A stretch of 63,031 nt of DNA, the filler included, from Stramenopiles sp. TOSAG23-6 (Eukaryota): NCBI GenBank assembly GCA_900128565.1. It is 18 parts of 18 records of this genome, joined end to end, with 100 filler letters (N's around TTAATTAATTAA, not from the genome) between each part and the next. Parts side by side here need not be neighbours in the genome. Positions count along the whole stretch, not along the records: positions 24,684 to 28,094 come from LT637513.1; 17 more parts are not named here. One strand, 5' to 3'. Below are positions 7,133 through 63,031 of the stretch, piece after piece; the stretch's first letter is position 1; each line of letters starts with the position of its first letter. The notes under the pieces were generated by a model. The model was not told the origin of the DNA, ran no database searches, and saw nothing but the letters and a program-made list of their open reading frames with translations. Made by a program: the position numbers and the translations under genes.

Positions 7133-10100
7133 ATATTCACCAGTTTCCTCAACTTGCATTACTTTACACATCATTTCAAAATTCATTTCACCTGATCCTG
7201 TAGCATCAAATTCTTGAAATTTTACAAATGCAAGTTCTAAAAAGTCTACATCTACATTATTATCTGACTGGAATTTTCGCATAAGTTGTTTCTTTTCAGC
7301 TTTAACTACTGCCCGTTTTTGTTTATCAGATGTACCTTCGGCTTTTGTTAATAATGCACCAACTTTATCGGCTGCAGGTGGACCAGCGATTGCAGGGGGT
7401 GGTGGAACTCCAGCAGCACCAAAGCTTGGAGGAGGTGGGATCCCACCAGGACCAAAACCAGCACCTGGACCAACTGATGTTGAATTGAAGTCATGACGAC
7501 TAGGATCAGGATGTTTGCATAATTTATAAAATTCTTCATATGAAACTTGTCCATCATGTATTGTGAATTTTTTTTTTTTTTTGGTTTAAAAAAATCGTTA
7601 GGTACAACATTTCGTATGAAAAAATAATTAGATACAATATTGAAATGAAAACGTACACCATCCAAATCAACCATTTTAATCATTTCATTGATTTCTTCAT
7701 CTGTGATCATTTCACCCATACATATGAGACAATGCCGCAACTCTGCCGCACCTATAAACATATTTTTATCTAAATCTAAGAACCGAAATGCATCAAAAAT
7801 TTCCTTATCTGAAAATTCATCTGATGCTGCAAAAGTACCCTCTTGAATATCAGCTTTCTTTTCCTCAAGTTCTTCTTCATTTCTTTCCGCTTGTAACTCT
7901 GCTTCTTCCTCCTCAGCTTCTTTATCGATTCTATCTCGTTCATCAAATGCATCAACAAGGGGTTGTCGTTGAGGAAACGCAGCACCAGCAGGAGCTGTAA
8001 AATCAAATCTAATTAATAATTCACCAGCTGTATCCTCCTGACCCCATCCTCTTTTCTTATTATAAATGGGTATCCATTCTTCTATATAGCCTTTTTTGAA
8101 ATATGGAAGTAAACTGATTTTTTGTTTTCCTATTAAATCATCACTAGAGATCATATCTTCATCAAATACTTCTAATATTAATTCATATTGATCAACAATC
8201 ATAAATTCTACAACTTCATCCCACATTGGTTCAGTACCACCATCAGTATCCGTTTTTGTTCTCTTTACTTCCTTGCCTGTGTTTGCACCCTCTAATGTAA
8301 ATTTAATATAAGGATCTTGTCTACCTAATGAATCTGCATCAAATAGTTTACGTCCTTGTTTAGGAGTAATTTTTAATTTACCTGCAGCAAAAAATTCAAA
8401 TGCAAATTCAATTTCACCTGCATCTTTCTTTTTTTTATCAAATATTTTGATGAATTTCTTATCTCTTTGACCAACGTCCATTCTAGTATACGGAACTACA
8501 GATAATTCAGTTTCACCTATTAAATCATCCGCGCCCACATCTTCATCATAACATGAAAGTTTTAGTGGATGTTGCCATATTGTATTATCAATATAAAACT
8601 CAAACTCTTCCTCCTTAAAGTATGGATTCTGTCCACCATCTTTTATAGTCTTTCCCCGACGTTTAAATGTTTTATTTGAACCTAAAGAAAATTTCAAATA
8701 TGGATCTTGCTTCCCCCAACTATCCATATTCTTAAGATTTCGACCATCAAATGCAGTTAGAACTAATGTACCTTGTTTTACTGGTTCAAACCATATTTCT
8801 AATTCTAATTCTCCAGCAGGTTGCTGTTGTCCTGATTTCTTATGAATCCAAGTTAAGTCATACCAGTCTCTTTCTGCTTCTAATCCTTCAAAAAAAGGTA
8901 ACATTGAAATCGCCGTTTCCCCAAGTAAATCATTACTAAAGCTACCTTTATTCCAAACACGAAGTAAGAGAGGCATGTCATTGTCTTTTAACATATGCTC
9001 TGGATTAAATAAATTGAAAAAGCAAACTTGCTTTTTAAAATCAGGAAACATTGATTGACCTTTCACCACTTTTGTTTTCTTTACAGGTCCTTTTTTCAAA
9101 GAGGAAACTTTGAACTCACAAAATATATTTAATTTTTCTTCTTTACCTACTTTTGTACTTCGACCAGCAGAATGTTTATGAATGTCTCGTCCTTGATGTA
9201 ATCGTACCATAAAACGACCAGGTCGAGGGACCCAACTTTCTTGCATATCTGGTGGTGGTGGCGGAGGAGGTGGACCACCAACACCTGAAGCACCATCTGC
9301 TCCTGGTGGTGCAAATGAAGGAGGTGCCATAGTAGGTGGTGGCGGAATATCACTTGGTGGTGGTGGAACACCAGGCGCAGCTGTTGGCGGCGCATCAGGT
9401 TTTGGTGGAGGCGAACCAGGCTTTGGTGGTGCACCAGGTGCACCTTCTTTTGCTGCTACAGTTGCTGCATCTTCTGATGGCGGAGGTGCTGATGGTGCTG
9501 GTGGACGAGCTGGTGGTCCTGGTCTTGCTGGTGGTCCTGGTCTTGCCTGTGGTGGGAGCGGACGTCCAGCACCCACTTGGGCAGTCTTTGGAGCACTACC
9601 ATCAGGGGGTCTTTTAGATGGTGGCGGTGCTCGTTTGGTTGGACTACTAGGAGCTTTTGGTTTTGGCCTTGGACCAGGTGGACCAGGTCGTTTGGGTTTT
9701 GCTTGTGCAGCTAAAGCTCTTGCATTTGGTTTAGGTGGCGGCCTTGATGGTGCAGGTCGCTTCGATTTTGCTACAATTTTAGCTGCCATTGGCGGTGCTC
9801 TACCCTGACTTTCTAATGGTGCCGCTCCCGCTGGTGCCTGACTTTGTGATGGCGGCGCAGTAACTGGTGCAGATATTCCAGGTGAAGCTCCAGGTGGTAA
9901 AGGTCGACCTATTGCAGCAGATGGTAATTTCATTGGTGCTGCACCCTGAGGCATTGAGGGTGGAGGTCTTCTGCCCGCCGGACTTCGAGGTGGAGGTCTC
10001 TTTGTTGGTATCGTAGTAGTAGTAGTTGTAGTTGTTGGTGCAGCTGAAGGTGCAGGTCGTTGAGGGGGGAGCGGTCTTTTACCTCCACCTGGCATCCCCA

Positions 10101-10496
10101 AAGGTGCAGGAGGCTTTGATGGTGGAGCTCGTTTAGTTGGTGGAGCTCGTTTGTTTGGTGGTGCTCTTTTAGTTGGTGGAGCACGACCAGCAGCTGCTAC
10201 ATTTGCATTACTGTCTGTTGAAGCACCCATCTTTCTATTTGCACCACCTGGCATTCCTAAAGGTGCGGGTGGTTTCGATGGTGGTGCTCGTTTTGTGCTT
10301 TGAACTTTTTCTAATGACATCGGAGGAGCTTTATTCGGTGGCGGCCTCTTGGTTGCAATTGTAGCTTGACCAGGTATTGGTTTATTTGGTGGCGGCCTCT
10401 TTGTTGCAATTGTAGCTTGACCAGGTATTGGTTTATTTGGAGGCGGCCTCTTGGTTGCAATTGTAGCTTGACCAGGTATTGGTTTATTTGGTGGCG
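7133..10496 (-). CDS. Pro-rich, triple-C2-domain, EF-hand protein (partial at both ends)
   Basis: Three C2 domains (e.g. DSWGKQDPY, DSLGRQDPY); EF hands DLDKNMFIGAAE and DLDG|DGQVSYEEF restored by intron 7556-7656; frame open upstream of 10320 to the contig edge. Confidence 0.85.
7556..7656 (-). other. Non-canonical GT-AT intron (101 nt)
   Basis: GGT|GTACGT...GTACCTAAC...CACAATACAT|GATGGA; removal restores EF-hand loop DLDGDGQVSYEE. Confidence 0.85.
10340..10496 (-). repeat. 51-bp coding tandem repeat (PPNKPIPGQATIATKRP), about 3 copies
   Basis: Direct inspection; in frame with the C2 protein. Confidence 0.85.
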
Positions 10497-10603
10497 NNNN
10501 NNNNNNNNNNNNNNNNNNNNNNNNNNNNNNNNNNNNNNNNTTAATTAATTAANNNNNNNNNNNNNNNNNNNNNNNNNNNNNNNNNNNNNNNNNNNNCAAT
10601 ATT

Positions 10604-22201: not shown

Positions 22202-23261
22202 TAATTTTTACGGTGGAGGGTTAGGGTTATGAATATACTTGGTTAGGGTTAGGGTTTGGAGATTTAAATTATTTGAAAAAAAAATTCAATGAACGATGCT
22301 GTTCGTTCTGTTCGTCGGTTGGCACACAAACAATTTCTTGCAAAAACTTTGTCATTAAAAGTTGTAAAGGCACAACAAAGTTATAATTAGAAATAAACAT
22401 TGTTCAATTTGATATTTTTTATTTTTTTTTTTGTTCAATTACAAAATGTAGTTTAATCATGATTCTTCAAATTCATGTTCAATCATGGTAAATGTAAATT
22501 ATGTAAATTTTACCAAAAGAATTTCTATTGTAGCTTGCAGTATAAGATCTGTCTCTTCAGATGTCGTGTTGTCCATTCTTTTTTCATCATCACTATCAAA
22601 AGGTCTCTCTATTGGTGACGTTGAGGGATTTTATGAATGTACAAGTGCTTGAAGTTTTTTTTATGGTTGGTATTTCTGGTGCCGCATTATTTTTTTATTT
22701 TTCCTAATTTTTATATTGTTTTTTTATTTTTCCTAATTTTTGTATTTTTTTTTTTATTTTACCCAATTTTGCTTGCATTATTTTTTTATTTTTCCTAATT
22801 TTTATATTGTTTTTTTATTTTTCCCAATTTTTTTTCTAATTTCAAATCAATGTGATATGGTGGCGAAAATATTGCAATATCCAAATATTGGATTTTGTAT
22901 TTTTCTACTTCTTGAAAAATTCCCTCATGATTTTTTCCCTCAAGTACTTTCAGGGATCTTCTTTATTTTCCAATACTTGAACGGGACGACCCACATTTTT
23001 TTTTTCAACTTGAAATGAAAAATAACTGATTTGAGATTTCGTGTTTCAAAATTAAGAAAGTGTGACGTCACTTTTCGACTTTTCAGAGACGAACGACACG
23101 CGGTCCACTTTTACAGATCTTGATCGTCTTGATCACCCAACTAATGTTAACAGTAACTTTAGTAGTAGGTACATATTTTTTCAACTGAACGTAGTGTACA
23201 ATTAGCTAATAGGGTCAAACTACAGTCTTCCGCGTACCTTTCTGTCACATAGCATAAAATA

Positions 23262-24194
23262 ATGATATTATCCACAAAATTTCACGTCACCAAGGGGTTT
23301 TCATCTTTGGTTCTTCGAAGTTTTGCCACAAGAGCTGCCGAAGTTAACGCTAATATTATCTTTCAACCATTTCACGAGGCACCGAAGGAGTCGATTTTTT
23401 CGAGTAATCCACTCAAAACTCTTCGACTAAATTTGGCATCCACCAGAGGATTGTGTGTTGGTCTATACTCTGCGTACCAAATTAAGCGAAAAGTAAAGGG
23501 TTTTGATGGGGGAAAGTTCGCAAAACAAGTGGAGCCTTTGATGAAGCGTTTTATGGAAGCTTACGTACTACGAGATGATGCGGCGCTCAGGTTAATGGTT
23601 ACCACAACACTTGCGGATAAGCTCAAGCTAAGCACAGGAAAAACTGGTGGTAAAGGAAGACGTTATCAAAAGGGTAGGAAAGTACGTAGTAAACAATCAA
23701 ATAGCTATGATGGATTTAGACTTATTGGCTATGACAAACCTTCAACTGTGCGTCAAATGCGTGTGTTTTCAGATGATAGAACCGTTTCTTATGGTCAAGT
23801 TACGTGCAGATTTCATGCTCAATATGTCCCTGTTCGATATTTACAAAATGGTGACATTGACATGAATGCCCCATTAACTCTTGAGAATAATAAAGGTGTT
23901 CAACTAGTAGAAAAGGAATATGAATGGGAACCTGCATATAATGAACATGGTTTGCGTTTCTTCTATAATAAATCAAATGAAACGACTTGGCAACAACCAG
24001 TTGAATGGCAATCACAGTACACAAGTATAAATTTTGGTCCTAGTGAACTTAACAAAAAAGATTTAGAATTCGTGAGTAATAATGATGAAGAACACCACCC
24101 TCATCCAGAAATAATTCATATGACGCATCATGTAGTTTTTGAGATAAAATTATTGAACAACCAACCAACGTGGCAGATCGCAGGTTTTCTGTAA
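23262..24194 (+). CDS. Tim44-like mitochondrial protein with inserted WW-like domain
   Basis: Transit-peptide-like N-terminus, GQVTCRFHAQ, HVVFE...WQIAG; WEPAYNEHGLRFFYN..NETTWQQP. Confidence 0.6.
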   Translation: MILSTKFHVTKGFSSLVLRSFATRAAEVNANIIFQPFHEAPKESIFSSNPLKTLRLNLASTRGLCVGLYSAYQIKRKVKGFDGGKFAKQVEPLMKRFMEAYVLRDDAALRLMVTTTLADKLKLSTGKTGGKGRRYQKGRKVRSKQSNSYDGFRLIGYDKPSTVRQMRVFSDDRTVSYGQVTCRFHAQYVPVRYLQNGDIDMNAPLTLENNKGVQLVEKEYEWEPAYNEHGLRFFYNKSNETTWQQPVEWQSQYTSINFGPSELNKKDLEFVSNNDEEHHPHPEIIHMTHHVVFEIKLLNNQPTWQIAGFL

Positions 24195-24773
24195 CCACTT
24201 TTATAATACTAGTTAATTACTAAAAGATAAAATAAATCCTTTTTTATTTCGAAATTCGAAGTATTTCATAAATTTAAATTTATGAAATTTAAAATTTTGA
24301 TTTTCGTTCTCATTTGACATATATTTATACGAGTCACTCGTAACTTCTTCGCACTCGCTCCGGATAGTCGTAGTCGACTTCGGGATCCCGTGCCGCATGA
24401 AAATTTTAAATAAAAGCTAGTTGAAATTCTCTGGATTTTAGATTAGCTAGGTTAGGTGTATTTGGTATATTGTGTGCTTTATTTACATTGTGCACAAAAT
24501 GGATCCAGCTTTTTCAGATCTGTCTATCTCATCAGTTTCACCACCGTCATCAGTTTCACCACCCTTGACACCAGAACCAAAAGNNNNNNNNNNNNNNNNN
24601 NNNNNNNNNNNNNNNNNNNNNNNNNNNTTAATTAATTAANNNNNNNNNNNNNNNNNNNNNNNNNNNNNNNNNNNNNNNNNNNNTGGAAAAATATTTCAAA
24701 AAAACCCGNTANGGTANAAANTTTCGTANAAAAAAAAACCAATTAATTCGAAATTAAAAAAAAAAAAACATAC

Positions 24774-26453
24774 ATACAATCACGACATTCGTTCATTGCA
24801 CGAAGAAATGATGAGGATACATTTGCACCCATTGTAAAATCATGATCTCTCACACACTGCTGGAACTCACGCACTATGCATTGTGAAAAAATATTTTTTT
24901 TTGAATTAAAAAAATTGTTAGGTACAAAACTTTCATAGTAAAAAAAATACTTTACATTAAAACATACATCCACATAAGAACAATATCTCGAGAGTATAAA
25001 CCTGAATTATGCATTTTTGAAGCTTTCAATGCTGTTAACTCATCTTTTTCCAAAAGTCCACAGATGACAAGGTCCTCATATATTGTAAAATTTGTTTTTT
25101 TGTAAAATTTGTTAGGTACAAAATTTAGTGCGAAAAAAAATTCGAACTTGAAAAAAAATAAAACATACATTTGTGGATTCTTCATACGTTGGGTCGATAC
25201 CCTTGTAAGTTAAGAAATGTGCAACATTTAAATATCGGTATATCCGAAAGTGGATTTTATTTGTTGCTGCATTTTCATGGCGAAATGCCGCATATATTTT
25301 CGAAAAATATTTCAAAAAAAAATCGTTAGGTACAAAATTTACTATGAAAAAAAAATCGAATTTGAAAAAAAATAAAACATACACATCCGAAGACCATTCC
25401 TAAATCATGTAAACGACTCTGAACTTTCAGCATCAGGTTCAGCGCCTTGTAGAATCTACTACACATGTGACGGTGGAAATATTTCAAAATTTGAAATTGT
25501 TCGATATGGGATTTTTTATGAAAAAAGAAAAACGAAATTGATGATGAAAATGTATAGAATAAAAATTTTTAAAAAAGAATCAACATTTACAAAATTGCGA
25601 ACGAAAAATAAAAATAAATAAATTTGAAATGATGAAAACCTACTCATTGTAAAAGCAAAACACTGAAAATAAAATAGTAAATATAAAAAATCTATCGTAA
25701 AACGTTGCAAATGCTGAAAAGCCTAACTGCAGAGAAACGAGCGATAAGCTGTTTTGTGTCAGGTTTGAGTCTAACTTTGCAGCACTTGCCGTGGCAGCAT
25801 CTACTGTGTTGTGATAAAGTATATCAAATTCGAAGTTTGTTAGGTATGGAATTTTCCTCTCAAAACAAAAAATCAATTAGGTACAAAATTTCGTACGAAA
25901 AAATAAATAAATTTGAAATGCGTAATGAAAACGTACATGATAACTTAGTCACTTCTAAAGGGACACTTGTAAACTCAACATATCTCTGATACCATGAAAT
26001 TAACGCAGAAACTCCAGCCATAGACAATGCTCCAAGAATGCTACCACTAAAAGAATGCCAAAGCCGGGTATATAGTTTCCATCGTGTATCCCAAAGGGCA
26101 ACGCTGTTCCGAAACTCGCAAATTGGCATTGGGGGTCTTTTATATTTTACAAAATCTTCAAATAGTCGAGAATATGTAAAGAATTCAGATATTCGCGCCC
26201 CCTTATTCTTCAGCAAGGACTTTCTGACGCATATCTTTGTCGCTCGATGTAGAGCTCGCCTGCAATGATGAACTTTGGTTAGTATTATTGTGGTAATGAA
26301 TACACATAGAACAAGTGCAGGAATCATTGCAAACCCAACTTGTTCTGATTGTTTCCAATTTTGAAGCTGGTTTGCTGAAGCCCCTCCATCCCATTTTAAA
26401 CCACTTTCACTTGAAGTTGTAGTTGACATAATGCAAAAATTAAAACTTAGCAA
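24774..26453 (-). CDS. Bestrophin-like membrane protein, multi-exon, partial
   Basis: Spliced model gives SRFYKAL..VQSRLHDL, RYLNVAHFLTY, GLLEKDEL; introns 25804-25936 (AG), 25465-25643 (CAT), 25292-25382 (TAT), 25078-25168 (TAT), 24876-24967 (CAT). Confidence 0.65.
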
Positions 26454-26731
26454 TAGTAGTATATCAATTTGAAATGTTATAAAACACTGCCGTCTGCTCG
26501 TTTCAACCGTCGTTCTACACTATTTCTAAGTGCACAAACTCCTAAACCTCCGATTGAAACGGTTACGTCGCACCAGTAACTGCTTTTTTACTAGACTCTA
26601 AAGTTTTCTTATTCGGTCGAAACAAACTAGCACAACATTGTAAAAAATAGTTGTGTAGTATGGTATAAGGATGTACACTATGAACTTATAGAAATATATA
26701 GATTCTTTAAAGTTGCATTTTTATTGGTAGA

Positions 26732-27623
26732 ATGAAAAAACAAGTATTATTCACTATTCTTTTCATCACACAGTGGAGACAAAACCAAAGTTTATTTATG
26801 AATTGTGAGTGTGAAGATAAAATTAATCCAGGTATATGCTATGCTACAACACGTGAATGTCACCGGGCGATTGCAATGTATCACTGGTATTATAAAGAAT
26901 TAAAGGGTAAAACGGGTGAATGCGGTGGTACATTACAACAAATAGTTGACGATGCAAAGAGCATCTGCACAAATGACTACTCAGTAGAAGACACAGACAT
27001 TGTGCGTGTCAAAGTTTGCGGTCCCACAGGGTTGGGTATCGGGGTAGAATTTGAGGAAATGCGTGTACACCGTGGCCAGTGTAGTGACTTATATACTACA
27101 AATAAATCAAAATGTATGGAGAGTGAAACTTGGACCCCAGGAATCTGCAGCGTCTACAATGATACACGAAATGACTCTCTTGATTGTGAAAAAAGTGGAG
27201 AATGGACCCCTCAAAAATGTTCAAATCCTGAATATACTACAAAGGAAGATTGTTTTTTAAATGTAGGTGCTGCTGGATGGACGCCTAATAAATGCAGTGT
27301 AGAATCACGAAGTGAATTAGGACAAGCTAATTGTATTGCAAAAGGTGTTTGTTTTCATCAATGCATTTCGAATTTTTTTTTTTTTACTACGAAATTTTGT
27401 ACCTAACGAATCTTTTTTTTACGGAAAAAAAAATATTTTTTCACAATACATACTTGGGTGGAAGGGATCTGCTCTGATGGGAATTCAAAAGATAAAGAAT
27501 CTTGTGAAAATAGTAAAGTTTGGATACCTTTCATGGATGTTGGTGTGTGTGATAATGCAACATCGCTTGATATCGCTACAGTATTAATTGTGCTTAGTAT
27601 CATTGTAAATCTTTACGCGGGTG

Positions 27624-27628
<5 letters not shown>
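26732..27628 (+). CDS. Secreted Cys-rich repeat surface protein (WTPxxCS repeats, hydrophobic C-terminus)
   Basis: Signal peptide; GT-AT intron 27347-27451 (GGT|GTTTGT...CACAATACAT|ACTTGG) continues the repeat as TWVEGICS. Confidence 0.75.
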
Positions 27629-27659
<31 letters not shown>

Positions 27660-28246
27660 ACATCTTAATAGTATCAGTGCAAATCTTTACGTCCTCTACA
27701 AAGGTGGCATTTAGCAAATTCAAAATTGAATCTATGCTAAAGTACTACATTTCGTTTACGTAAACAAAATCAAAATTGTCTATACAATAAAGGCCACAGG
27801 CAAACATTAAAAAAATAAAACCCTCATTGTCTTTTTGTCCTTGAATTATTTTATTCGAGAAAAAAATATATAAATATATAATATTACCCGGTTTACTATA
27901 GAAAAATAAATCTATTGAAAAAGAAAACAATAAGAGTAAATCCGCGCGAGGCTCTTGACCATTGCGAAACACGAAATACTACAAAAAACATCTCGTTACT
28001 CCTTCCCTTCAATGAAAAACAGACTGGGCAAAATTAAAGATATCAATCAGAGATTGAATATATAAAATAATGCAGACCCAGTCAGAAAAAAAAANNNNNN
28101 NNNNNNNNNNNNNNNNNNNNNNNNNNNNNNNNNNNNNNTTAATTAATTAANNNNNNNNNNNNNNNNNNNNNNNNNNNNNNNNNNNNNNNNNNNNACAAAA
28201 TTTCGTACGAAAAAAAAATCGAATTTGAAAAAAAATAAAACATACA

Positions 28247-29427
28247 TATCATCATTACATTTAGTAATAACTGAAGGATGCTGCATGGCTACTCGGTTTA
28301 AAGTACGATGTACTGTGAAATAATATTTCAAACATTTGATTTTTGAGTTAGGTACACGAAACCTTTGGATTTTCAAGAAAAAAAAACAATTTTGAAATTG
28401 AAATGCTGAAAAATATTTCAAAAAAAAATCGTTAGGTACGAAATTTCGTATGAAAAAAAANNNNNNNNNNNNNNAAAAAAATTGAAATTTGAAAAACGTA
28501 CAATAGCAGCGAAGCGCAAGGTCGCCCTTGGAGACGCCAAAAACATTTGAAGAACTGAAACAGCTGGAGCTAAATCACGTGGAGAAGCACCAGGTAAGGC
28601 ACAAATGCACCGAGCAGCTTCATAAACAACCAATTCACTCTTGTGCCGGAGACAAGATTCTAGAAAATCCATCAAGTGAGCTTCATTCACTTCTGCCATT
28701 CCTTGGTGCAATAATTGAGTGGCGTATTGCACAAGCTGATACATTGCCAATGGTGATCTTAACATTGAATTAGTTAGCTTCAAAACAAATTTTGAAACAG
28801 AAAGAATGTCACCCCTCCTAGACTCAAACAACAAACATAAAGCGTGATATTGTACCATGTCACTTGGCATGTTGAGTGCTTCTCGAATCTGACTAATCCA
28901 ACCACGAACGATGGAATTGTTATCTTTAGCAAGATGAAGACCAGCTACTAAGGATGCTGATGCTACCATTGGTGTCTTATCTACGATAGCAGACTGAAAG
29001 TAGCGCTCGATCTGTCCAAGAAAAGCAGAATCGATAATCTTTGATAGAACCCTAATAGAGTTAGCTTTCCGTAAGTCATCGTCACTAGTCATATCTTTTA
29101 CCAGACATGATATAACAATAATAACCTCTTCTGCAGAAGTAATATCTGCTATCTCTTTGATGAAAAGATACATCATACGTCGAAGGTCTGGATCGTGACT
29201 TTGGAAGAGCTTCGTGACACCGAAGAAAACATCAGAAGTTTCCGTCTGTGTAAATCTATCTCCATTGTAGAGAAGATATAACAACTCAGTAATTACTTGA
29301 CAACATCGTTTGGAAAAGGCGAGTACACTAAGTCCTCATCCTTCATCTTCAGCTTATCGCGCATACCACTAAACTCTTTCATGACGGAGTTCATTAAGGA
29401 ATCAGTCTGTTGCCCTGGAGATTGCAT
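28247..29427 (-). CDS. COPG: Coatomer gamma subunit, 5' part
   Basis: LLYLL..GDRFT..E..DVFFGVTKLFQS, LRHKSELVVYEAAR, LRFAAI|RTLNRVAM across GT-AT intron 28308-28501; apparent frameshift near 29315. Confidence 0.9.
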
Positions 29428-29959
29428 GAACCGATTGCTAATAAGTTCTACAGTGGATACACTATCCTCGCAATCTAATTGCCAATAATTTAATTAGACT
29501 GCTTGGCAATAAAGAAACACAAAATTAGCCACTCAGAAAAATTATTACGTAGTACGTGTATGTATTCGCGAGAGAACCTCTTTACCTTCGAGTCGAAACT
29601 TTGAAAAGCGAAGGATCCGCGAATCGAAACAAAAATTATGAGATTTCGTGCAAGTCAAAATGATCGATGCTCAAGTCCTGAAGGCCAAAGCAAGGTACCT
29701 TACGTAGGGTACCCTTTTGGATACCCATAGTGCTATACAGTAGCCACATTATTACGTAGTAGATACGAAGTAGCAAATCTATATATTATATAATACTGTA
29801 ATAATTAAAATTGGCAACAATACATATTCACTACAAAGAACATTCAGTATTAGGCCGAATAAATAGGATAAATTAAGGAACCTTATTTTATTTTATGTAA
29901 AGCAGGACATATACTCTCAAAACTCCCGTTTAATCTTTCTACTACGTGCAATATCAATT

Positions 29960-31605
29960 TTATTTAATCTTTCTACTACGTGCAATATCAGAACGAATAC
30001 CACTAACCTCACCTTGGTATTTTTGTGTCTCTCCAGTACGAACTTTTCGGATTTGACCACCTCGAGCTTTAACACGTTTTGCATAACGGATTCGTTTATC
30101 AACACGTGGATTGCGTTTTTGTTTTTTACGGTGAGCAGTAAGCCCACGATTTTTGAGAATAGTACGAGATGCTTTTCGGGCTTCGTTATCATCGACAACT
30201 TCATCTGCTCCAGTAAGCATTGGAGCAACGGCATACGCCTCGGCACGTTTTCGTTTCTTCTTCTGCTGACGGGCTTTTGTGGCTGAATAGAAAGCATCTT
30301 CACCAACGTCGCTATCAATATTTTTTTGTGTGCTACTAGAGATTGATCGGCTCCCGCTAAAATAATCATCAGAATCAGAGTCGTTTGTAGCAGCAAGTCG
30401 TTGGTTCTGGAGTCTGCGTTGATTTTCAACAACATCAGGATCTTTCATAAATACAGCATCAGCTGATTGACTTCCATTTTTCTTCTGTTTTTGACGTTGC
30501 TCAATTCTATTAACATGACTTTGAAGGGAGACTCTTCCTGAAAATGTTGCATCATCAGTTGTCAATCCATCCATTTCTTGTTGTTCATATAAAATTTCAC
30601 TATCACCAAAATCTGTAAGCTCTTGAAAGGCATTTGGCAATCTACCTGTTCTCGCAGCAGCTGCATGATTCTTTTGTTTCTTTGTCAATGTTAATCGGGT
30701 AAAGTTTTCTTCTTCGTAACGGCGCCGTTCAGCTGCTTCTTCGTCCGCTTCTTGGTCACCAGTCATTTCCTCACGCAATTCTTGTGGACGAGCACTCATT
30801 TCTTCACGCAATTCACGAAGAATCTTGCTTTTTTTCAATCGCTCACGACGTTTCGCTTCTTTTCGTTCAGCTTTCGCAGCACTACTTTGTTTTCCACCCT
30901 CTTCATCATAAGGTACAGCCATCATACGCGGTGCTTGGTATATACCTGGTACCGTATCATTTGCTTCGTCTGAGTCGCCACCAGCAAGATCATCCAAATT
31001 CGGAGCAAAATGTAAGGCATCGGCATCAGCTTTACCACTTGTCTTTTCTGATTCAACTGATGTTAAGTCCACCTTAAGCAATTTATCAATTTGATACTTT
31101 AACTTTTTATCAACAGGCTTCAGTTTATCCATTAAAACTCGGAGATGAATTAATTGGTCAATTACAGGGTGATCCTTAACAGAGATGCCTTTTGACTTTA
31201 GAAGCATATAAAAACCTACGTTAATGCAATAACTAAGAATAAGATGAAACTTCACATCTAAGTAACTCAATCCTTTTTCCGTCGCTAAGCCTCCTTCCTT
31301 CACCTTTTGAATCAGTGGTTCTACGGTACCTTTTAGCTGCTCGCTTTTACTCTTAAAATCATCGAGAAGAGTAAGTAACTCTGGAGCATCTGTTAAAATA
31401 CGCTGAAGTTTTGCACTGGTAGACATTTTACTAGCAACAACGTGACGCTCAATTTTGAAATCTGCTTTGTTTCTTGAGCTTTTTGTTTTTTTTGCAGATC
31501 GTTTTGCATTCTTCTGCGTATTTTTGTCCGTATTTGCAAGGTGTCCCATTGTTTTGTCTTCTGTTTCTTCATCTGAGTCTGAAATTTCAAAGTCAGCGTC
31601 CTCTA
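29960..31605 (-). CDS. UTP3: Sas10/Utp3 SSU processome component (5' truncated)
   Basis: YLDVKFHLILSYCINVGFY..LK, HPVI..L, C-terminal KNRGLT..RKK..RNPRV..R..Y, YQGEVSGIR. Confidence 0.9.
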
Positions 31606-31988: not shown

Positions 31989-32622
31989 GTAGGTTCAAAT
32001 GTTATAATTTGAAAAGAAACACTGAAAAAAAAAATTTTGATTTTTTTTGAAAAATATTTTTTGAAAATATTTTTTGATTTTTTTTTTCAAAAATTTTTTT
32101 GAAATTTTTTAATTTTCTTTTTGGTTCTATTTTTCAAAAAATTTTCGTCACATTTTTTATACATATTTGTTATGTAATATGTTATATTAATAATCCTATT
32201 ATTATTTTTGTATGGACATTTCATACATGCTAATTTTATTCAAAACCAATGACACAATTTTTNTCCCNAANCCNAATNTAAAATTTTTATTTGAGTCTTT
32301 TGTATTTATTTTAATTTTTCTTAACCCTAACCCTAACGTTAAACCCTATATTTTTTATGNTACATTTGAGTCTGNTAGGAGTTCTTTTAATTATTTTAGG
32401 TTTACTTTTGTTTTTGTATTCAAATATTTTTGATCGTCAAATGCAGAATTCATGATNGNGTCTAGATTTTTTTNAAGTACGCATATATATATATAGAATA
32501 AAAACACACCAAAAAATATTGTCAATTTTTTTTTTAAATTTTTGTTAGGTACGCATCGAGTCAATCAATTAAAAAAAANAAATTCAGAATTTACCCATTT
32601 AATTTTTATTTTACCATGTTTA

Positions 32623-34115: not shown

Positions 34116-35026
34116 ATGTCAGTGGTACATATATATNACATGCTTATCATTCTCATAGCAGTGACTACTCTACAAATACAGTGTACGACAGTTCTTGGGG
34201 ATAATGTTAAAGCCACAGCTCAGCCAATTCAACGACAAGAGCAACGTGATGGATCTACTATAGAACAACTACAACACAGAGAGATATCTACAACAATACT
34301 CAAGGATGCATCAAAACCTTCATTTAATGCTACAGCAATACCATCACCACTACTAACAACAACAGCTAATAGTTCTCTTTTCTTTCAAAACATCTCCAAA
34401 CTATTACAAGNAAGAAAATTCACGGAAACNATGCAATTACTTAGTCAAGTCATTCACTCAGAAACACCAAAACAAACAAAAAAAACTTCTACTTTTTTGA
34501 TACATTCGAAACTTCGACGAGGAGCACTTTCATTACGAGGTAGGCTACATGTTGTATTTGGCGATTTTTCATCNGCTTTAGATGATTTTGTTAATGCAGG
34601 TGAAAATAATGATTTAATTTGGAAAGTATGTGTTCATTTTTTTTTTTTTTTTAATTCGTACGAAATTTTGTACCTAAACAATTTTTTTTTTTTTTTAATT
34701 TTTTAAATTCGTACGAAATTTTGTACCTAAATATTTTCATTTTTTTTAAAATTTTTTTTTCACAATACATACAAAACAAAAACGTAAAGATTTCGTGGAT
34801 GCAAAAGTAAAATTTTCTGAAGAAAGATATCCAGAGGCATGGCATGCCTTGAGTAAATTAATAAAAGCTGGAAGCATTGAAAGTTCAATTTTATATCTTA
34901 AAAGGGCTGAAGCTGCAAGATTAGATGGTGCATACACAGCTGCTCGAGGTGATGCAATTCGCGTTTTACAAAATGATCGATTTAATGCTGATGCGGCAGC
35001 TATTGTAGCAGATAGTTTTTTTTCCG
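34116..35026 (+). CDS. Secreted TPR-containing protein, partial
   Basis: Signal peptide, TPR-like helices (LYLKRAEAARLDGAYTAARGDA); GT-AT intron 34626-34770 joins WK|TKQ in frame. Confidence 0.6.
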
Positions 35027-35235: not shown

Positions 35236-38165
35236 TTGGTTATATTGTATAACACAACAAGTGTTGTCGCAGCACCACCAGAAGCAAAAGCAGCACCAGC
35301 ACCAGAAGCAGCAGAAGCAAAAGCAACAGCAGAAGAAGAAGCACGAGCAGCATATTACGAACGCACATTGGAGTTTCTCGAACCGCTACGTGAGGCTAAG
35401 AATGCTCAACGTCGAAGAAACAAAGCAAAAAGAGCAGCACGGAAAGCGGCCAACACGATCCAAATGGCCGCAGCAGACGCAGCAAAAGCAGACGCAGCAC
35501 GAGCAGTACCAGAAGCAGAAGAAGAAGCAAAAGCAGGAGAAACAAAAGCAAACCCAGAACGTTTGCAAGCGTTCATCAATGGTCTCAAAGAAGTCTTCGA
35601 AAATGCTACTTCAGATGATATTCAACCAACTATGTGAGTTTTTTTTCGAATTTTTTTTTCGAATTTTTTTTTCATAGTAAATTTCGTACCTAACAAAAAA
35701 AAAATTTTGAAATATTTTTTAAGCTACATCGATGCTTCTGAAAACGTATTCGAAGAGATGAAAGAGGCTGTTTCTGGTGAATGTAGTTCGGAAGCTATTG
35801 TCCTCACTTTGAAAAATCATTTCGAAGAATTCAATACATTGTTTGTTTTTATCATTCATTTTAATTTCAATGTACAATTTTTTTTTACTACGAAATTCTG
35901 TCCAAAACTTTTTTTTTTTTTTTAATTTCAATGTATAATTTTTTTTTGCTGAAAAAAACCAAAAAAAACAAAAAAAACAAAAAAACTTTTTTTTTTTTTT
36001 TACTATGAAAATTTGTACCTAATTGTGTAAAAAAAAATTGGAATATTTTTCGGAAATATATATTGGCTCAAGGCAATGAAGAGAACAAGGAAGAGGAGAA
36101 GAAAGTCATTCTGGAAAAAGTCAAGGCTATCGCAAAAGGAAACTCTGGAAAATTGTATGTTTCTTCATTCTGAATTTTAAATTTATATTTATAGTTTTTT
36201 TTCATACGAAATTTTCATAGAAAACAAAAAAACATTGAGATTTTTTTTATAGAAGAATTAATTAATCCCAACATTTTCTTCCGTGTTTTTGATGTTTTTT
36301 ACTAAGTAGCGTTTCCGTCTTTTTCAATTGAAAAAACAAAAAAAAACAATCATTTTGTATTTTTTTTCATATCTTTTTTTTTTTTTTTTTTTTTTTTTTC
36401 ATACACTTTACACTAACAAAAATATTTTGATTGCATCAAATTTGAAATATTCTTTCATTATTCAGTTATGAAGCTATGCTAAAAGCCATTTTTTGTGATG
36501 CGCAAACGCTTATTGAAGAGTTGCATCAATCTACGACGCCAGAAGGAAAACCATCTTTGGCGACGATACAGGTACTGTGCGTCATCTATTATACATATAT
36601 ATATATATATATATATATTTGTAGTACGTTTTGTACTTAACAAATTTTTAAAATATTTTTGAAATATTTTTTCACAAAATAGGAAGGGCAGAGTAACGTT
36701 TTATCAAGAATTCATGGCAAGAGTGAAAGAAGCAGAAGCAACAGCAGCAGAAGCAAGAAAAGCAGAAGCAGCAGCACGAGCAGAAGCACCACCGGCGGGA
36801 GCACCACCAGCAGGACCACCAGCAGCACCACCAGCACCACGGCCACTGCCACATCCGGCGAATCTGCCACGCTGGAAAGACCCAGCAGAAGCAGCAGCAG
36901 CAGTACGCATTCAAGCTGTCTATCGTGGACACAAAGGAAGAGAAACAGCAACCGCCGCAGAAGCAGCAAGAGCAGAAGCAGAACGAATTGCTGCAGAAGC
37001 AGCAGCAGCAGCACACGCAGCAGCGGAAGCACCAGCAGCAAGAGCATTCTATGCTGTTCGACGAGGTCATGTTGGAGAAGTTGCACAACTTATCGCTGAT
37101 GGTGTTGATGTCAATCTGACTGATAACGATGGATCTACACTATTGTTTATTGCTTCAATGAATGGTTATGATGAAGTAGTTCAACTACTTCTCGGTGCAA
37201 AGGGAATTGATGTCAACGCGGTGAACTTTGATGAAGAAACCCCATTGTTAATGGCTTCATTTTTTGGTCATGTTGGAGTAGTTCAATTACTTCTCAATGC
37301 TGGTGCAAATGTCAATCAGTCAGATATCGACGGATGTACCCCATTGTTTAATGCTTCAAAGATGGGTTATGAAGGAGTAGTTCAAATACTTCTTGCTGCT
37401 GGTGCTGATGTCAATCAGGTTGATGAAGACGGATATACCCCATTGTATAAAGCTTCAGGGAATGGTCATGATAAAGTAGTTGAAGAACTTCTTGAAGCAA
37501 AGGAAATTGATGTCAATCAGGCTCCTAAAAGTGGATTCTGGAGTGGATATACCCCATTGTATATTGCTTCAGAGAGAGGTCATTATAAAGTAGTTCAACT
37601 ACTTATCGATGCTGGTGCAGAAGGGGAAATGAAAGGAGAAAACGTAGCAGCAGAAGCAGCAAAATCAGCCGCAGAAGCAAAAGCAGCACCAGCACCACCA
37701 GCAGCAGCACCACCAGCAGCAGCACCACCAGCAGCAGCACCACCAGCAGCAGGACCACCAGCAGCAGGACCACCAGCAGCAGCACCACCACCAGCAGCAC
37801 CACCAGCAGGACCACCAGCAGCAGCACCACCAGCAGCAGCACCAGCAGCACCACCAGCAGCACCACCAGCAGCACCACCAGCACCAGCACCAGCAGCACC
37901 ACCAGCAGGAGCACCACCAGCACCACCAGCAGCAGGACCACCAGCAGCACCACCAGCACCAGCACCAGCAGGACCACCAGCAGGAGCTCCACCAAATGCA
38001 CCAGCTCCACCAAATGCACCAGCTCCACCACCACCAGGAGCACCAACACCAACACCAACACCAGCACCAACACCAGCATCTGGTACGGGTTCAAAAGTTT
38101 CACACACTTATGTGCTAACTACTACGGCACTTTTGGGTGTTCTATCATTTGTCGCAATATTATAA
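35236..38165 (+). CDS. Ala/Pro-rich protein with IQ motif, about 6 ankyrin repeats and hydrophobic C-terminus, multi-exon
   Basis: IQAVYRGHKGR; TPLxxASxxGH repeats; introns 35634-35729 (CAT), 35841-36061 (TAT), 36155-36465 (AG), 36577-36682 (AG). Confidence 0.75.
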
Positions 38166-39956: not shown

Positions 39957-41959
39957 TTAGAAGCTGGAATTCCTTCTGCGTCTACTTATGTTTTTTCCAA
40001 TTGCATGTATTGTGAAAAAAACAGGAAATAACAAAAAAAAATCGTTAGGTACGAAAGTTCGTACGAAAAAAATAATTTAGATAAAAATTGAAAAAAATAA
40101 AATAAAACGTACATGCACTTCAAATCCAATCGTTTCAACTTCTTCATGATTGAGTATATTTCTACCATCAAAAAGAAAAGCCGGTTTTTCCATACCATCA
40201 TAAATTTTTTGGTAGTCAAATTCTTTAAAACAGTCCCATTCAGTTAAAATTGCAATTGCATGAGCTTTCTTCATCGTGTCATATGGTTTATGATTTTCCA
40301 AAGAAATCATCTTTCGTAAACCGGGTACCGTTTCTTCAGTGATACCACAGGTGTACTTTAACTCTTTGAACATTTCTTCTTCAGTCACTTGTGGGTCGTA
40401 TACAGCAATAGTAGCTCTTTCGCCGAGTAATGCTTTAGCAATGTACGCAGCGGCTTGAAATGCAAAAAAATATTTGAAATTTTTTTTTTTTTTTTTTTGT
40501 TAGGTACGAAGTTTCCTATGAAAAAAAAAAGTCGACGTACAATAGCCATTATGTAAACATACAGTTTCTCGAGTATCGCCTGTATTTTTTTTAAATGCAA
40601 ATCCAAGTAATGCAATTTTCTTTCCCGTAACTGTGTTAAACATACTTATTTTGTAAAAAATATTTTTTTTTTTTTTGAAAAAATATTTTTTTGTTAGGTA
40701 CAAATTTTACTACAAAAAAAAATTTAAAAAAAAAAAAAAATTTGACATACTTTGAATAATTCTTTGAGAAAAACGATTTTTTTGATAATTATTCATTGTA
40801 ATCACAGATAGCCAATAGTCAGCAACTTCAGGTAAATTAAATGATTTACAAAGATATACCAAATTCAAAATATCTTTTTGAAAACAAGATCCTCCAAAGC
40901 CAACACTTGCTTGTAGAAAATTAGATGTATGAAAAAAAANATTTNAAAAAAAAAANTNGTTNGNTANGGTTGAATTCTCTAGGGTTAGGGTTAGATGTTG
41001 AGATTGAAAAAAAAATTTTAATTTTTTTTTTTAAATTAAAAATACGTCCAATACGTGGATCTGTGCCAATGGCATGAGCCACCTCAGCAACATTTGCATT
41101 CGTTTTTTCACACAATGCACTGATGGAGTTAATTGATGAGATCCGCTGTGCAAGGAATGCATTGGCCACTAATTTCGATAATTCTGAAGACCATGGACTA
41201 CAAAAAAAATATTTCAAAACAGTTTGAAATCGTTAGGTACGAAATTTCGTACGAAATGTTTTTTTTTGGAAAAAGGGGAAAATTAATGAATTATGAAAGC
41301 ATACACAATGATGATGTAATTATTTTAGCTTTGGGTACCCAATGCGCATAAATAGCACACAACTTCGCTATCGCTTTTTGTCCGCTGGGTGTTCCCTGAC
41401 CACCAATTAGAACTCGTGAAGGATTAGACAAATCGCGGATGGCAGTCCCTTCGGCTAAAAATTCAGGATTTGATAAAATATCGAAAGTGACACCATTCTT
41501 ACATGTTGATGATAAAATGCGTTGCAATGCGTAAGCTGTTTTTACTGGAACTGTAGATTTTTCAACCACAACTTTTGACGTTGTTGATACTTCTGCAATT
41601 TTGCGGGCCGCTTTCTCCAGATTTGTAAGATTTGAAGCACAACCAGCGCCAATACCGTACGCTTTAGTCGGAGTATTCACACAAACAAAAATGATTTCTG
41701 CATCAGCAATCTCTTTATCAATATTTGTATTAAAAAAAAGGTTTTTTCCACGTACTTTTTGAATAATTTCCTCAAGGCCAGGTTCAAATATTGGAAGTTT
41801 TTCTGAGTTCCAACGATCAACCTGAGCTTGACTAATATCTACAACTGCGACGCGGATATGAGGGCATTTGTTTGCAATCATTGCCATTGTTGGCCCTCCA
41901 ACATACCCAGCTCCAATGCAGCATATACGCGTCGTAAACTGATTTGATGCGGATGACAT
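39957..41959 (-). CDS. UGDH: UDP-glucose 6-dehydrogenase, complete, 6 exons
   Basis: [73 protein letters not shown]. Confidence 0.96.
40005..41304 (-). other. Five non-AG introns in UGDH: 41193-41304 (GT-AT), 40925-41045 (GT-AT), 40646-40750 (GT-AA), 40455-40562 (GT-AA), 40005-40112 (GT-AT)
   Basis: Removal restores ITSSL|WSSELSK, DPRIG|PNFL, IIQ|SMFNT, DTRET|AAAYIAK and FEVH|AIGK without indels against remembered UGDH consensus. Confidence 0.87.
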
Positions 41960-42721: not shown

Positions 42722-43659
42722 CTATAGTATATTTATTATTTACTCCTATTTATTGGGAATGCTCAAGTGTATGTGCATGAACCAATCTTATTCTTTTGAA
42801 ATCAGCACAAGAGAGAGAGAGAGAGAGAGAGAGATGATGATGAAATTGAAAAAGAGATTTTTTTGGCATTTCGAAAATTTTGAAAATTTGAAAATTTTGA
42901 CTTTTTTTTTTCGTACGAAATTTCATAGCTAACAAAAACAATTTAAAAAAAATATATTTTCCTACAATAAATGTACAATAAATGTAAACGGATGTTTTGA
43001 TAGATATATTTTACACCCCATGAATATGGGTGTTCCAAGTATTTTTATATTGTAAGAGGCGTGGTGTCCGTTCGTTCGTTCGTTCGTTCGTTCGTCCGGT
43101 GTCCGATTTCTAAATTTCGTAGTTAATTGGTACAAAATCAATAAAATATGAGCTGAATTTATACTATATATTCAGACTATAGATATATACACTGACTATA
43201 TATAGCTGATCAAGTAGGATTAATCCATTGTCACTTTAAACCAGGTTTGTACATTTGTAACACTTAAATAAATAAGAAAAAAACAAAAATGGGGTGTTCA
43301 ACGTCGAACGACAATCTTTTATTTAATTTACAATTCGGTTTAGTAGAGAAAAAAGAACTCATAGCATTGAGTAAATTTTTGCAATTTTACAAAAAAGTGC
43401 TTACTATTAGATTGAATTTTTAAATTAGATCTCAGATAAAAAAAAATGAATTTCTTAATTTATCCATATAAGGGGGGAATTATATTTTGAGCAGGTTTGC
43501 GCCAATTTGTCTTCTGTACCAATTAAGTACGAAAAAAAATTTTGTTTGCGTTTTTTGACCACACGTGTCGTCGTGCGTACCCAACCAACAAAAACTTCGA
43601 AGTTCGGTACCACCAAGGTCTTCATATTACATAATACTTGCGCAACGTAAAAAAGCATT

Positions 43660-45400: not shown

Positions 45401-45811
45401 ACACAACCATACAACAACCTTCATGCAATCATCTCTTCTATGGTCACCCATTGCTTGAAGAAGCTTGCAATAACTTCTGATAGCCTGCAATGGCAACTAC
45501 TTACTAATATATTAATGATACATTATACTTTATTAAAGAAAAACTTAATAAAATCACATACCAATAAAAACCCATCCCAATACCACCCATCCCANNNNNN
45601 NNNNNNNNNNNNNNNNNNNNNNNNNNNNNNNNNNNNNNTTAATTAATTAANNNNNNNNNNNNNNNNNNNNNNNNNNNNNNNNNNNNNNNNNNNNAGGTAC
45701 AAAATTTCGTACGAAAAAAAAAAATCGAAGTTCCTACTGCAAATTTTGAAAAATCGTTAGGTACAAAATTTCGTACGAAAAAAAAAATCGAAGTTCCTAA
45801 TGCAAACATAC

Positions 45812-48040: not shown

Positions 48041-48347
48041 ACTGCAACACGTCTAATTCAACAGCACCAGTACTATCTAACCTACCTGCAAGGAGAACGA
48101 GAGAGTCCATCGAAAAATTTCAAAGTGTTTTTCGCTTCGCCGCGAGTGAGGTAAAAAACACGAAATCCAATCCGAAATCTGGTACTCAAATATATGTTGA
48201 AACTGTAAACTACATCACGTTTGACACAACGTAAACTGAAAGATAGCACAATAAACTGAGTACAAATAAACTGAAAGATAGCACGGTTTATAACAGTAAA
48301 AAAGATTGGAAGCTGTTGCCAGTTACACCGAACTACCAGTCACATAC

Positions 48348-58100: not shown

Positions 58101-59546
58101 GATTTTCACCCATAGTTTTGAGTAGACTTCCAAAACTTTTTACATTTATTACACCAGGTGAACTCTCAAAAACTCCTAAAGCATCAATTATATTCTGAAG
58201 CGAGGTTGTTGGTTTTAGTTTCTTCATCATTTCTACAAAACTATTTTCATCTAAACTATCTCCTCCCATCATCTTTGCTATTGTTTCGTCGGAAGCTCCG
58301 AATAAAGAACCCCATACACCCTGCATATCTTCTTTTGTAACTTTCCCATCGCCGTCCTTATCGATAAAAAGAAAAAGTTGCTGAAACGTCTCGACGTCGG
58401 ACATTTTAATATATGCTTTGTGGTGCGATGTAGTTTTGGTCAATGAAATGTATTTCGTATTTCCAAAGATATGCTGCTCGCGAGTAGCGCGCAAACGCAA
58501 ACAACGGTCGACAGTTACTTTTTGTTCTTTTCCTTTTTCCTTTTCCTTTCCTTTCAGAAAATGAAAACCATGCGATATTTCTCAAACAAGCATGGATTTT
58601 TTTAATATACATACTTAATACTACTACTGTTTTTAATGGCGGCAGTACAAGCTCTACAAAGAGGTGGGCAAAGTCATGTAGATTTTGGAGAATTTGAGAA
58701 TACCATTTATGCTCAAGGAACAAAAGATCACGACAACGCTATTGCTGAGATAATTGAAATGCGACATTCACGAGCCGGAATTATTGCTGAGGAAGCAGAT
58801 ATAGACCATTCCCGCACTATTGATACAATAAATCAAAATAGCATTGAAACCAAAAATAATATAGATCTAAATTTTGCTGTTCGTAAAGAAAAAGTAAAGG
58901 AACAACTAGATGAAACCGAACTAGCTTCATTGGGTATGTTTACGAGTATGACAGAAAGTGACCTTATAGAACTCAATGAAGAGTGTGAAGAACAACTTCA
59001 AAGTGAAATTGCTATGGCAACCCAGATTTTCAAGGCTAAAAATGAAGCTCGAGAAAAGGCTGACAAAGAGTCTAGTGATACCAGGGCTGCAATCGCAAGA
59101 GATATAAAATATAATATAAAACAGAACTTAGAAGATAAAAAAATGAAACTTATAAAGTTAGAAACTTCACTTTCGAAGCTTAAGAGTAATGAAAGTAAAA
59201 TGGCGGATATTTCACAAAGGTTACAAACAAAGAGAGCCAAGCAATCGCTTAGTGCGAAAATCAGAGCTACAAAATGGGACATTGAACAATTACAGCAGAA
59301 AGATAAAGATGCATTCATGAAAAGTAGAGATATAGAAGTAGAGGCTTTAGTTAAATCACAAAATACTGCAAAACTTCAGCTAGATCTTTTCACTGTAGCA
59401 AAATCAAAACTTAAGGCACAGGCGGCTGCTCAAAAACAAAAGCGGTTGGATCTGTTTAAACAATTCCAACAGACTAAACAAAACTCCAGGAAGCAAGATG
59501 AAATGTTGTCATCATCAGTTAGGCAGCAAGATGAAATGTTGTCATC
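49186..59546. repeat. Three further copies (49186-52572, 52673-56059, 56160-59546) of contig 17644-21063
   Basis: Identical ORF translations; each copy bounded by the artificial linker; one fewer terminal 33-bp unit than the first copy. Confidence 0.95.
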
Positions 59547-62811: not shown

Positions 62812-63031
62812 CATTACGTACGAAATTTTGTACCAAAAAAAATATTTTGTCAAAAAAAAAAAAAGCAAATTTACATTTTTATGTAAATTGCTTTTCGTAC
62901 GAAATTTTGTACCAAAAATCGCATTACGTACGAAATTTTGTACCAAAAAAAATATTTTGTCAAAAAAAAAAAAAGCAAATTTACATTTTTATGTAAATTG
63001 CTTTTCGTACGAAATTTTGTACCAAAAATCG
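62812..63031 (+). repeat. 110-bp tandem repeat built from the intron-internal motif CGTACGAAATTTTGTACC
   Basis: Two units seen (period 110), each with two motif copies; an extra motif copy near 62703. Confidence 0.85.

Follow-up and report, generated by a model that had tools for sequence, protein, structure and literature searches.

Evidence for an introner-like family of introns spliced mainly from GT to AT in an uncultured MAST-3-like marine stramenopile

The DNA examined here is a stretch of 63,031 bases (the window) from genome assembly GCA_900128565.1 of Stramenopiles sp. TOSAG23-6, in which 18 contigs of about 3.4 kb each are joined by spacers of the form N44-TTAATTAATTAA-N44; it is AT-rich (35% GC), and contigs make up 61,331 of its bases (about 61 kb). 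Our subject is a family of look-alike introns in genes that are not paralogous to each other (among them those for UGDH, a C2/EF-hand protein, a kinase and an ankyrin protein), which was first noticed at 25078-25382, where two complete introns on the minus strand, 25382-25292 and 25168-25078, are separated by an exon of 123 nt. Some of the genes are intron-dense: UGDH has five introns in a coding sequence of 1.45 kb, and exons of 66-111 nt occur elsewhere (read by eye). The best named match to the first exon of UGDH (41306-41959, minus strand) is a EukProt record labelled ‘MAST3’, the exons of which are identical to those of the window; the next relatives are 75% identical, followed by stramenopile algae and plants. 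These matches point to an uncultured marine stramenopile of MAST-3 type, and the host is treated as such below. DNA of the stretch was found in two small 2015 runs, in 2024 seawater metagenomes and, in part, in seawater metatranscriptomes.

An earlier note on this DNA had described near-identical 5′ halves in four introns on three contigs and had proposed recent, introner-like, copy-and-paste intron gain. Exact copies of the 5′ sequence GTATGTTTTATTTTTTTTCAA lie at 25362-25382(-), 25148-25168(-) and 28225-28245(-), and a copy with one mismatch lies at 21410-21430(+); the near-identical copies on three contigs (21164-24583, 24684-28094 and 28195-31605) therefore stand, with the coordinate 28246 corrected to 28245. 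Allowing up to three mismatches, GTATGTTTTATTTTTTTTCAA has seven matches, against 0.07 expected from shuffles. Over the 58 nt of their 5′ halves, up to the CTAAC box, introns 25382, 25168 and 21410 are 86-91% identical, which is the top of all pairs (all-pair median 68%); the 28245 copy is cut by the contig end and N gap, 33 nt away. The 3′ ends CACAATACAT and CCAAAATACAT do recur among delimited introns, as had been described, and since these recurring ends read ...ACAT, the introns do not end in AG. The length cluster of 91-130 nt given in the note was too narrow, for the 27 delimited introns range from 91 to 314 nt (median 108), several of them having internal duplications (34626-34770, 21164-21298, 28501-28308 and 35841-36061).

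These 27 comprise 26 window introns and one from a metagenome contig, L001; introns 21750, 21950 and 31761, the 3′ ends of which are uncertain, and 21576 were left out of the counts. The family accounts for essentially all of the recognisable introns found, in a search that began from family features and may overlook introns of other kinds. Each of the 26 window introns carries at least two of three blocks, which come in the order GTAYGTTTT, a T-run with CRTACGAAATTTYGTACCTAAC, and ATATTTTTTCACAATACAT; the consensus from 19 aligned introns (GTATGTT...T-run...CnTACGAAATTTTGTACCTAAC...AAAATATTTTTTCACAATACAT) likewise has three conserved blocks. GT starts 24/24 introns, with G at +5 in 20/24; the full GTACCTAA box is found in 21/27 and a CTAAC-like box in 25/27 (the L001 intron counted), at 32-59 nt from the 3′ end. 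Across the window, TTTGTACCTAAC with at most one mismatch occurs 35 times, against 0.42 expected, and when all GTACCTAA or GTACTTAA sites were listed, the 39 sites had one shared architecture, two of them (6560 and 43530, outside introns) being judged chance. A profile built from 18 introns has 52 matches at E<=0.01, covering 3,445 of the 61,331 contig bases (5.6%); some matches fall on both strands, for which a near-palindromic core is responsible. Window statistics are slightly inflated by redundancy, as contigs 17644-21063, 49186-52572, 52673-56059 and 56160-59546 are one sequence (100% identity over 3,387 nt).

The ends of these introns are unusual. Their termini are GT..AT in 21 of the 27, GT..AG in four and GT..AA in two (two starts having been corrected by 1-2 nt), so that, in contrast to the 3′ YAG of canonical U2-type introns, only four end in AG; position -3 is C or T in 26/27. 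Spliced RNA fixes two of the AT ends: RNA contigs X6 record 9 and X9 record 24 both join 25168 to 25076, skipping 91 nt, and X9 record 24 also joins 24968 to 24875, keeping in the RNA an AG that lies 2 nt past the intron end at 24876. The register of these junctions could shift by 1-2 bases only (to TG..CA or AT..GC), at the loss of the GT which is otherwise invariant in 24/24. No RNA contig among the matches listed bridges intron 25382-25292; removing it together with 25168-25078 and 24967-24876 leaves one open frame (frame 2), and removing the four introns of 35634-36682 likewise gives an open frame with no stops.

Protein homology fixes six further AT or AA ends. A five-intron model of UGDH, with termini GT..AT, GT..AT, GT..AA, GT..AA and GT..AT in order, encodes 482 aa and aligns to the 478-residue protein P0008 with 354 identities and four gap columns, all junctions being seamless. 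Within it, intron 41045-40925 has no bases common to both ends and its GT..AT register is unambiguous; in intron 3, the AA before the GT equals the last two bases of the intron, and GTATGT begins both the intron and the next exon. In intron 7656-7556, position 53 of the Pfam EF-hand_7 domain closes the upstream exon and position 54 opens the downstream one. The public UGDH model, P0005, lacks 18 residues in exon 1 and 20 in exon 5, differs at junctions and ends by translating intron 5; these defects are probably a side effect of gene finders expecting AG. Automatic calling of boundaries from open reading frames (ORFs) was itself unsuccessful, because many of the A/T-rich introns are themselves open.

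Three of the introns ending in AT have an AG 5-6 nt before that end which splicing bypasses, and earlier AT dinucleotides are skipped too. The 3′ site is therefore defined neither by the first AG that follows the box nor by the first AT; its likely determinant is the conserved 3′ block.

Similarity among the introns extends well beyond their ends. In an all-against-all BLAST of 23 introns at E<=1e-5, 145 of 253 pairs match and all introns but one (22 of 23) cluster together; the database is tiny and such E-values are lenient, and 20 dinucleotide shuffles gave 0-5 matching pairs (mean 2.15) against 144 real ones. A further check for low complexity showed a complex 22-nt core, with T-runs and A-runs making up much of each copy. 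The best pair, 21410 and 25382, lies on different contigs and is 90.4% identical over 94 nt, an alignment that covers the 92-nt intron; pairwise alignments end at exon borders. Six pairs, linking five introns, have one alignment reaching both boundaries, and most other pairs align in blocks only. L001, the only metagenome contig with the core motif, holds one family intron (GT..AT, 104 nt) in an unrelated gene, and this intron matches UGDH intron 5 at 86.7% identity over 113 nt; a viral collection scanned for the core motif gave no match. Two spacer motifs which are not splice signals, TTCAAATTCGA and TATCTA[AC]AT (TATCTAMAT), recur in subsets of copies, and box variants are linked (CA..C vs CG..T: table 6/4/2/13, Fisher p=0.028, n=25). 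At least four mutually similar introns, by which introners are operationally defined (Gozashti et al. 2022), are thus present.

Assembly behaviour adds to this picture. Contig ends fall within family matches in 8 of 36 cases, against 2.2 expected (p=0.0014, in a test made slightly conservative by the three redundant contigs), and one internal gap is also flanked by matches. In a 2024 seawater DNA run, 4,887 contigs match contig 24684-28094, 862 of them at >=99% identity; summed depth is 6,461-58,963 in four intron bins, compared with about 6 in exons, a figure that is not a copy number and to which other organisms contribute. Local duplication or gene conversion was considered as the main source of the likeness and dropped, because pairs from one contig do not resemble each other significantly more than pairs from different contigs (0.630 vs 0.606, permutation p=0.09).

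Pieces of the family also lie outside introns. At 42897-42967 there is a 5′-truncated intergenic copy. In the repeat at 62812-63031 the core occurs twice per unit, with 3′-end-like pieces in both orientations and CTAAC absent; it looks like a foldback of intron 3′ halves, outside genes and at a contig end. The same repeat holds the inverted pair GCAAATTTACAT / ATGTAAATTGC, and single cores lie at 62700-62732. Neither the intergenic copy nor the repeat can serve splicing, and they therefore favour a family by descent. The earlier note had named similarity limited to short splice signals as the outcome contrary to its proposal; what we found instead are end-to-end pairs and family pieces outside introns. 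Its claim of a sequence family in unrelated genes, alike up to both intron ends, is borne out, and so are the family and dispersal parts of its introner proposal; recent gain by copy-and-paste transposition is not, the copies being at most 90% identical over their full length, with a median of 61%.

Table 1. Family introns and related copies in the window, with the basis of each assignment
Position	Strand	Feature	Basis or remark
25292..25382	-	family intron, 91 nt, GT..AT	profile E=1.5e-11; removal with next two keeps one frame open
25078..25168	-	family intron, 91 nt, GT..AT	spliced RNA contigs
24876..24967	-	family intron, 92 nt, GTATGT...TGCAT	spliced RNA; AG 2 nt downstream unused
25804..25936	-	family intron, 133 nt, two branch boxes, end CACAACACAG, GT..AG	motif and frame only
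21410..21501	+	family intron, 92 nt, GT..AT	nearest relative of 25382
28195..28245	-	family intron 5′ half, cut by contig end	sequence, profile
27347..27451	+	family intron, 105 nt, GTTTGT...CACAATACAT	plus-strand gene on contig of 25382; profile
41193..41304	-	UGDH intron 1, 112 nt, GT..CCAT	seamless L|W junction vs P0008
40925..41045	-	UGDH intron 2, 121 nt, GTATTT...CATACAT, CTAACCCTAACCCTA in place of GTACC box	junction G|P|N vs P0008
40646..40750	-	UGDH intron 3, 105 nt, GT..AA	homology to P0008
40455..40562	-	UGDH intron 4, 108 nt, GT..AA (TA..AG register gives identical mRNA)	homology
40005..40112	-	UGDH intron 5, 108 nt, GT..AT	homology; 86.7% identical to L001 intron
10964..11160	-	two family introns head to tail: 11160-11065, 11064-10964, no exon between	both start GTAGGT
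7556..7656	-	family intron, 101 nt, GT..AT, within EF-hand loop	Pfam EF-hand_7
35634..36682	+	four introns: 35634-35729 GT..AT, 35841-36061 GT..AT, 36155-36465 GT..AG, 36572-36682 GT..AG	open frame
62812..63031	.	non-intronic 110-nt tandem repeat, 2.0 copies, 100% matches, family core CGTACGAAATTTTGTACC	profile both strands
42897..42967	+	family copy without 5′ splice site, between genes	profile
11546..11670	-	kinase-gene intron after DFG, 125 nt, degenerate box CATACCTAAC, end CTACAG, GT..AG	sequence

Several features of single introns are recorded here (Table 1). Around the head-to-tail pair at 10964-11160 the exons, read by eye, give ...DIWSVG|CTVIEMATGKN; a Pfam check of the kinase junction was uninformative, as an insert follows DFG. 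The rare 5′ site GTAGGT is found in three delimited introns (this pair and 12083) and in a candidate near 10720, all on the minus strand and in one kinase gene, a clustering which may reflect intron duplication inside its own gene. Telomere-like CCCTAA repeats of 2-3 units lie in or beside introns at 40985-41000, 21757-21772, 32320-32345 and 22210-22260; in UGDH intron 2 and in the 21750 intron they replace the GTACCTAAC box, and they themselves contain CCTAAC. At 21576-21683 (plus strand) the 5′ site GTTTGT directly abuts the CATACGAAATT box and the T-rich spacer is absent. Reading this intron as GT..AT was rejected, as it shifts the frame, which requires GT..TA or TT..AT (read by eye); it is either a further 3′ variant or reflects a sequencing error in the exon.

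Long single-exon genes are present too, with ORFs of 1,066 and 751 residues and those of the fourfold contig, which carries intron-less genes for a DnaJ/ankyrin-like protein, an EF-hand protein and a coiled-coil protein. The frame of 1,066 residues (7348-10548, minus strand) encodes a proline-rich protein with PPNKPIPGQATIATKR repeat units, C2-like regions and a C-terminal EF-hand pair, and meets its first intron only at the last EF-hand loop. The 751-residue single exon (45800-48052, minus strand) codes for the splicing factor SYF1/XAB2 (Pfam E=2e-149), and just 3′ of it a family intron begins, running from 45811 into 45695.

We suggest that these observations are best explained by an introner-like family in a MAST-3-like stramenopile, which would be spliced from GT to YAT by a spliceosome that no longer needs AG; we put the probability of this reading at about 0.7. 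Each copy would supply its own splicing kit, made up of the three blocks described above: a yeast-like 5′ site, the T-run and box, in which CTAAC is the likely branch site, and the 3′ block, whose last base would be the last base of the intron. Excision runs from GT to YAT, or in a minority of cases to YAG or YAA, as RNA shows for two introns and homology for six, the last base being free to be T, G or A, and the 3′ site would be set by the 3′ block of the family and not by AG. Spread of the family by copying into unrelated genes is suggested by its subfamily structure, end-to-end similarity, non-intronic copies and very high copy number.

The spliceosome concerned would probably be of the major type, for which the G at +5, the CTAAC box and the presence of an SYF1 gene in the window speak. 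The machinery has to be inferred in this indirect way because the window holds no small nuclear RNA (snRNA) gene. A U2 branch-binding site reading GUAGGUA would match UACCUAAC, and loss, duplication or divergence of U2AF1 would account for splicing without AG.

How far could strict splice signals alone produce such likeness? Species with strict signals, such as Ostreococcus, have introns that are alike through long conserved 5′ and branch/3′ signals, and the introns described here could on that model be ordinary old ones with no mobility, an explanation that we consider unlikely. In its favour, the three blocks correspond to 5′ site, branch region and 3′ end, yet they occupy about 50-60 of some 100 nt, far beyond known signals. 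The spacers between the blocks do vary in length and sequence, but there are subfamilies with linked variants, and there are shared spacer motifs; and while the median identity over full length is just 61%, there are pairs in unrelated genes that are 87-90% identical from end to end. Nor would strict signals account for copies without a 5′ site, outside genes and in a tandem or foldback array, or for contigs that break at family introns. Strict splice signals are said to accompany few introns, whereas intron density is high in some of the genes here. The family thus differs from introns of the Ostreococcus type in its likeness beyond signals, its non-intronic copies and its locally very high density.

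Regarding the route of spread, the exon context of the introns offers a clue. The upstream exon has A at -2 in 16/24 and T at -1 in 18/24, and the next exon starts with G in 14/24; as exons end in A-T and are followed by G, both junctions lie in an AT|G context. Intron and exon have the same last base in 18/27 (about 15, of 24, being expected from composition alone), and the last two bases agree in 13/27, mostly as AT/AT. Of the six non-AT introns, two have an end that repeats that of the exon (AG/AG at 36572 and AA/AA at 40750). As a sign of target-site duplication this pattern is no more than suggestive. The route that we prefer would be a short non-autonomous DNA element, which inserts after AT and duplicates it; the duplicated AT would become the 3′ splice site, and the element would be excised with one AT, restoring the coding sequence.

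Alternatively, an excised intron might reverse-splice at ...AT|G and be copied back, with neither a DNA transposon nor a target-site duplication. All 27 delimited genic copies read as sense in orientation, insertion sites have the AT|G context of existing junctions, and in the 11160-10964 pair one copy begins precisely where the other has its 3′ junction, all of which such an RNA route would explain, as it would the lack of clear inverted ends and of a transposase in the window; the truncated intergenic copy and the foldback or tandem array are easier to produce at the DNA level, however, and the AG/AG and AA/AA repeats fit duplication, which leaves this route, in our opinion, very unlikely.

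The least probable explanation, removal of the family by a minor (U12-type) spliceosome that has been expanded and altered, as in Physarum, where U12-type introns arose in their thousands and odd termini (GT-AT included) occur, has in its favour that GTATGTTTT is one base from the Physarum U12-type GTATCTTTT, that ACCTAAC resembles CCTTAAC, that 3′ termini vary (AT, AG, AA) as in U12-type introns and that the box lies 32-59 nt from the 3′ end (the cited U12-type limit is about 45), but C at +5, the defining U12-type base, is never found (0/24, against G in 20/24), [AG]TATCC or [AG]TATCT occurs in 0/24 introns, the Physarum branch motif lies only 9-12 nt from the 3′ end, and GTATGT with TACTAAC-like signals is the classic major-type pattern.

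Several points weigh against an introner-like family spliced to YAT and against the DNA-element route. The inverted match between intron ends is only GTAT...ATAC (4 nt), with loose T/A-rich complementarity. No transposase was found among nine long ORFs (Pfam) or, by eye, among the six ORFs of 17644-21063, in 61 kb, and no empty site or intron-less allele among the DNA contigs listed for contig 24684-28094. The idea of a target copy is not significant statistically, four of the six non-AT introns having no repeat of the exon end, and an Rfam search over the window found no snRNA and no other RNA family. As to the boundaries, 12 of the 27 were set by motif and eye reading alone, the RNA contigs come from two polyA metatranscriptome runs of a single study, and UGDH intron 41304 also permits a GT..AG reading that adds one residue and is used in public model P0005. 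The conserved blocks coincide with the places of splice signals, so part of the likeness may be due to selection; overall likeness is modest, with no identical pair in the window; and the sequences are T/A-rich and of low complexity.

Folding gives no structural signature of the family either. Ten introns folded as RNA had no shared structure (z -0.17 to -1.97, with one value of -4.75 from U-run/A-run pairing), and folds pair the intron ends in few copies only. The palindrome GTACGAAATTTCGTAC is broken without compensation in the TAGTA variant (read by eye).

Comparison with known systems places this family nearest to introners, which are look-alike introns with similarity reaching both ends (an operational definition) and are widespread in marine protists (PMC9860276). 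The introners of Micromonas pusilla, Aureococcus and dinoflagellates (PMC9860276, PMC11282704) are likewise look-alike introns of uniform length, in unrelated genes of marine protists, and there too the element carries the splice signals, with one site possibly coming from the target copy (PMC11282704); in Micromonas the 3′ AG comes from target duplication (PMC11282704). Most published families are GY..AG, in contrast to the 21/27 ending in AT here, and a 2025 introner curation pipeline considers 3′ sites AG and AC only. The family described here also seems to make up nearly all introns, and not a subset.

Three other lineages bear comparison. In the tunicates Fritillaria borealis and F. pellucida, which are animals, more introns end in AT than in any other dinucleotide (34% and 44%), the last three bases form a YAY triplet that is often found before the 5′ site as well, and a modified major spliceosome is at work (PMC13326754); an exonic TAC is thought to form the 3′ site on transposon insertion (PMC13326754, PMC11282704). 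Fritillaria introns differ in having non-canonical 5′ ends (AG/AC, AG/AT) and diverse termini, 5% being GT/AG (PMC13326754), whereas the introns here have a strict GTAYGT, a strong CTAAC box and one dominant family, in a stramenopile protist. Amoebophrya, also a marine protist, has repeated introns whose borders are not GT-AG and in which short direct repeats overlap the exon-intron boundaries, but it shows no preferred terminal dinucleotides and has inverted repeats of 8-20 nt that pair the ends (PMC7789003); here GT..AT is uniform and folding finds no consistent end-pairing or hairpin. Physarum polycephalum shares mass intron creation and extended motifs, with GT-AT among its non-canonical termini (17% of 1,014), and differs in a [G/A]TATC[C/T]TTT 5′ motif and a branch site 9-12 nt from the 3′ end, which were not found here (bioRxiv 10.1101/2020.10.12.336362).

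In the literature we found no report of a GT..AT-dominated genome or of MAST-3 introns or introners, although supplements may contain intron statistics. MAST-3 single-cell genomes have been reported to have low gene counts (PMC5778133); in the accessible text of that paper the word ‘intron’ occurs twice, in methods only, and in PMC8163842 it does not occur, unusual introns being mentioned in neither.

A wider proposal, which we offer tentatively and think more doubtful than probable, is that one mobile intron rewrote the splice code of a whole lineage: AT would have been copied on insertion, the major spliceosome would have dropped AG in favour of the 3′ block carried by the element, GT..AT would be normal in MAST-3-type stramenopiles, and the published gene sets of these abundant ocean grazers would be systematically wrong. 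Introners are the foremost explanation offered for bursts of intron gain, and Fritillaria, Amoebophrya and euglenids show that such bursts can push the spliceosome toward non-standard ends. If the introner-like reading of the present family is true, it would be an independent and very clean case in a free-living marine stramenopile, in which the intron start and branch box stay strict and only the last base is altered, and what defines a 3′ splice site without AG would become directly testable. Re-annotation permitting GT..AT could then recover many genes of this abundant, uncultured ocean group.

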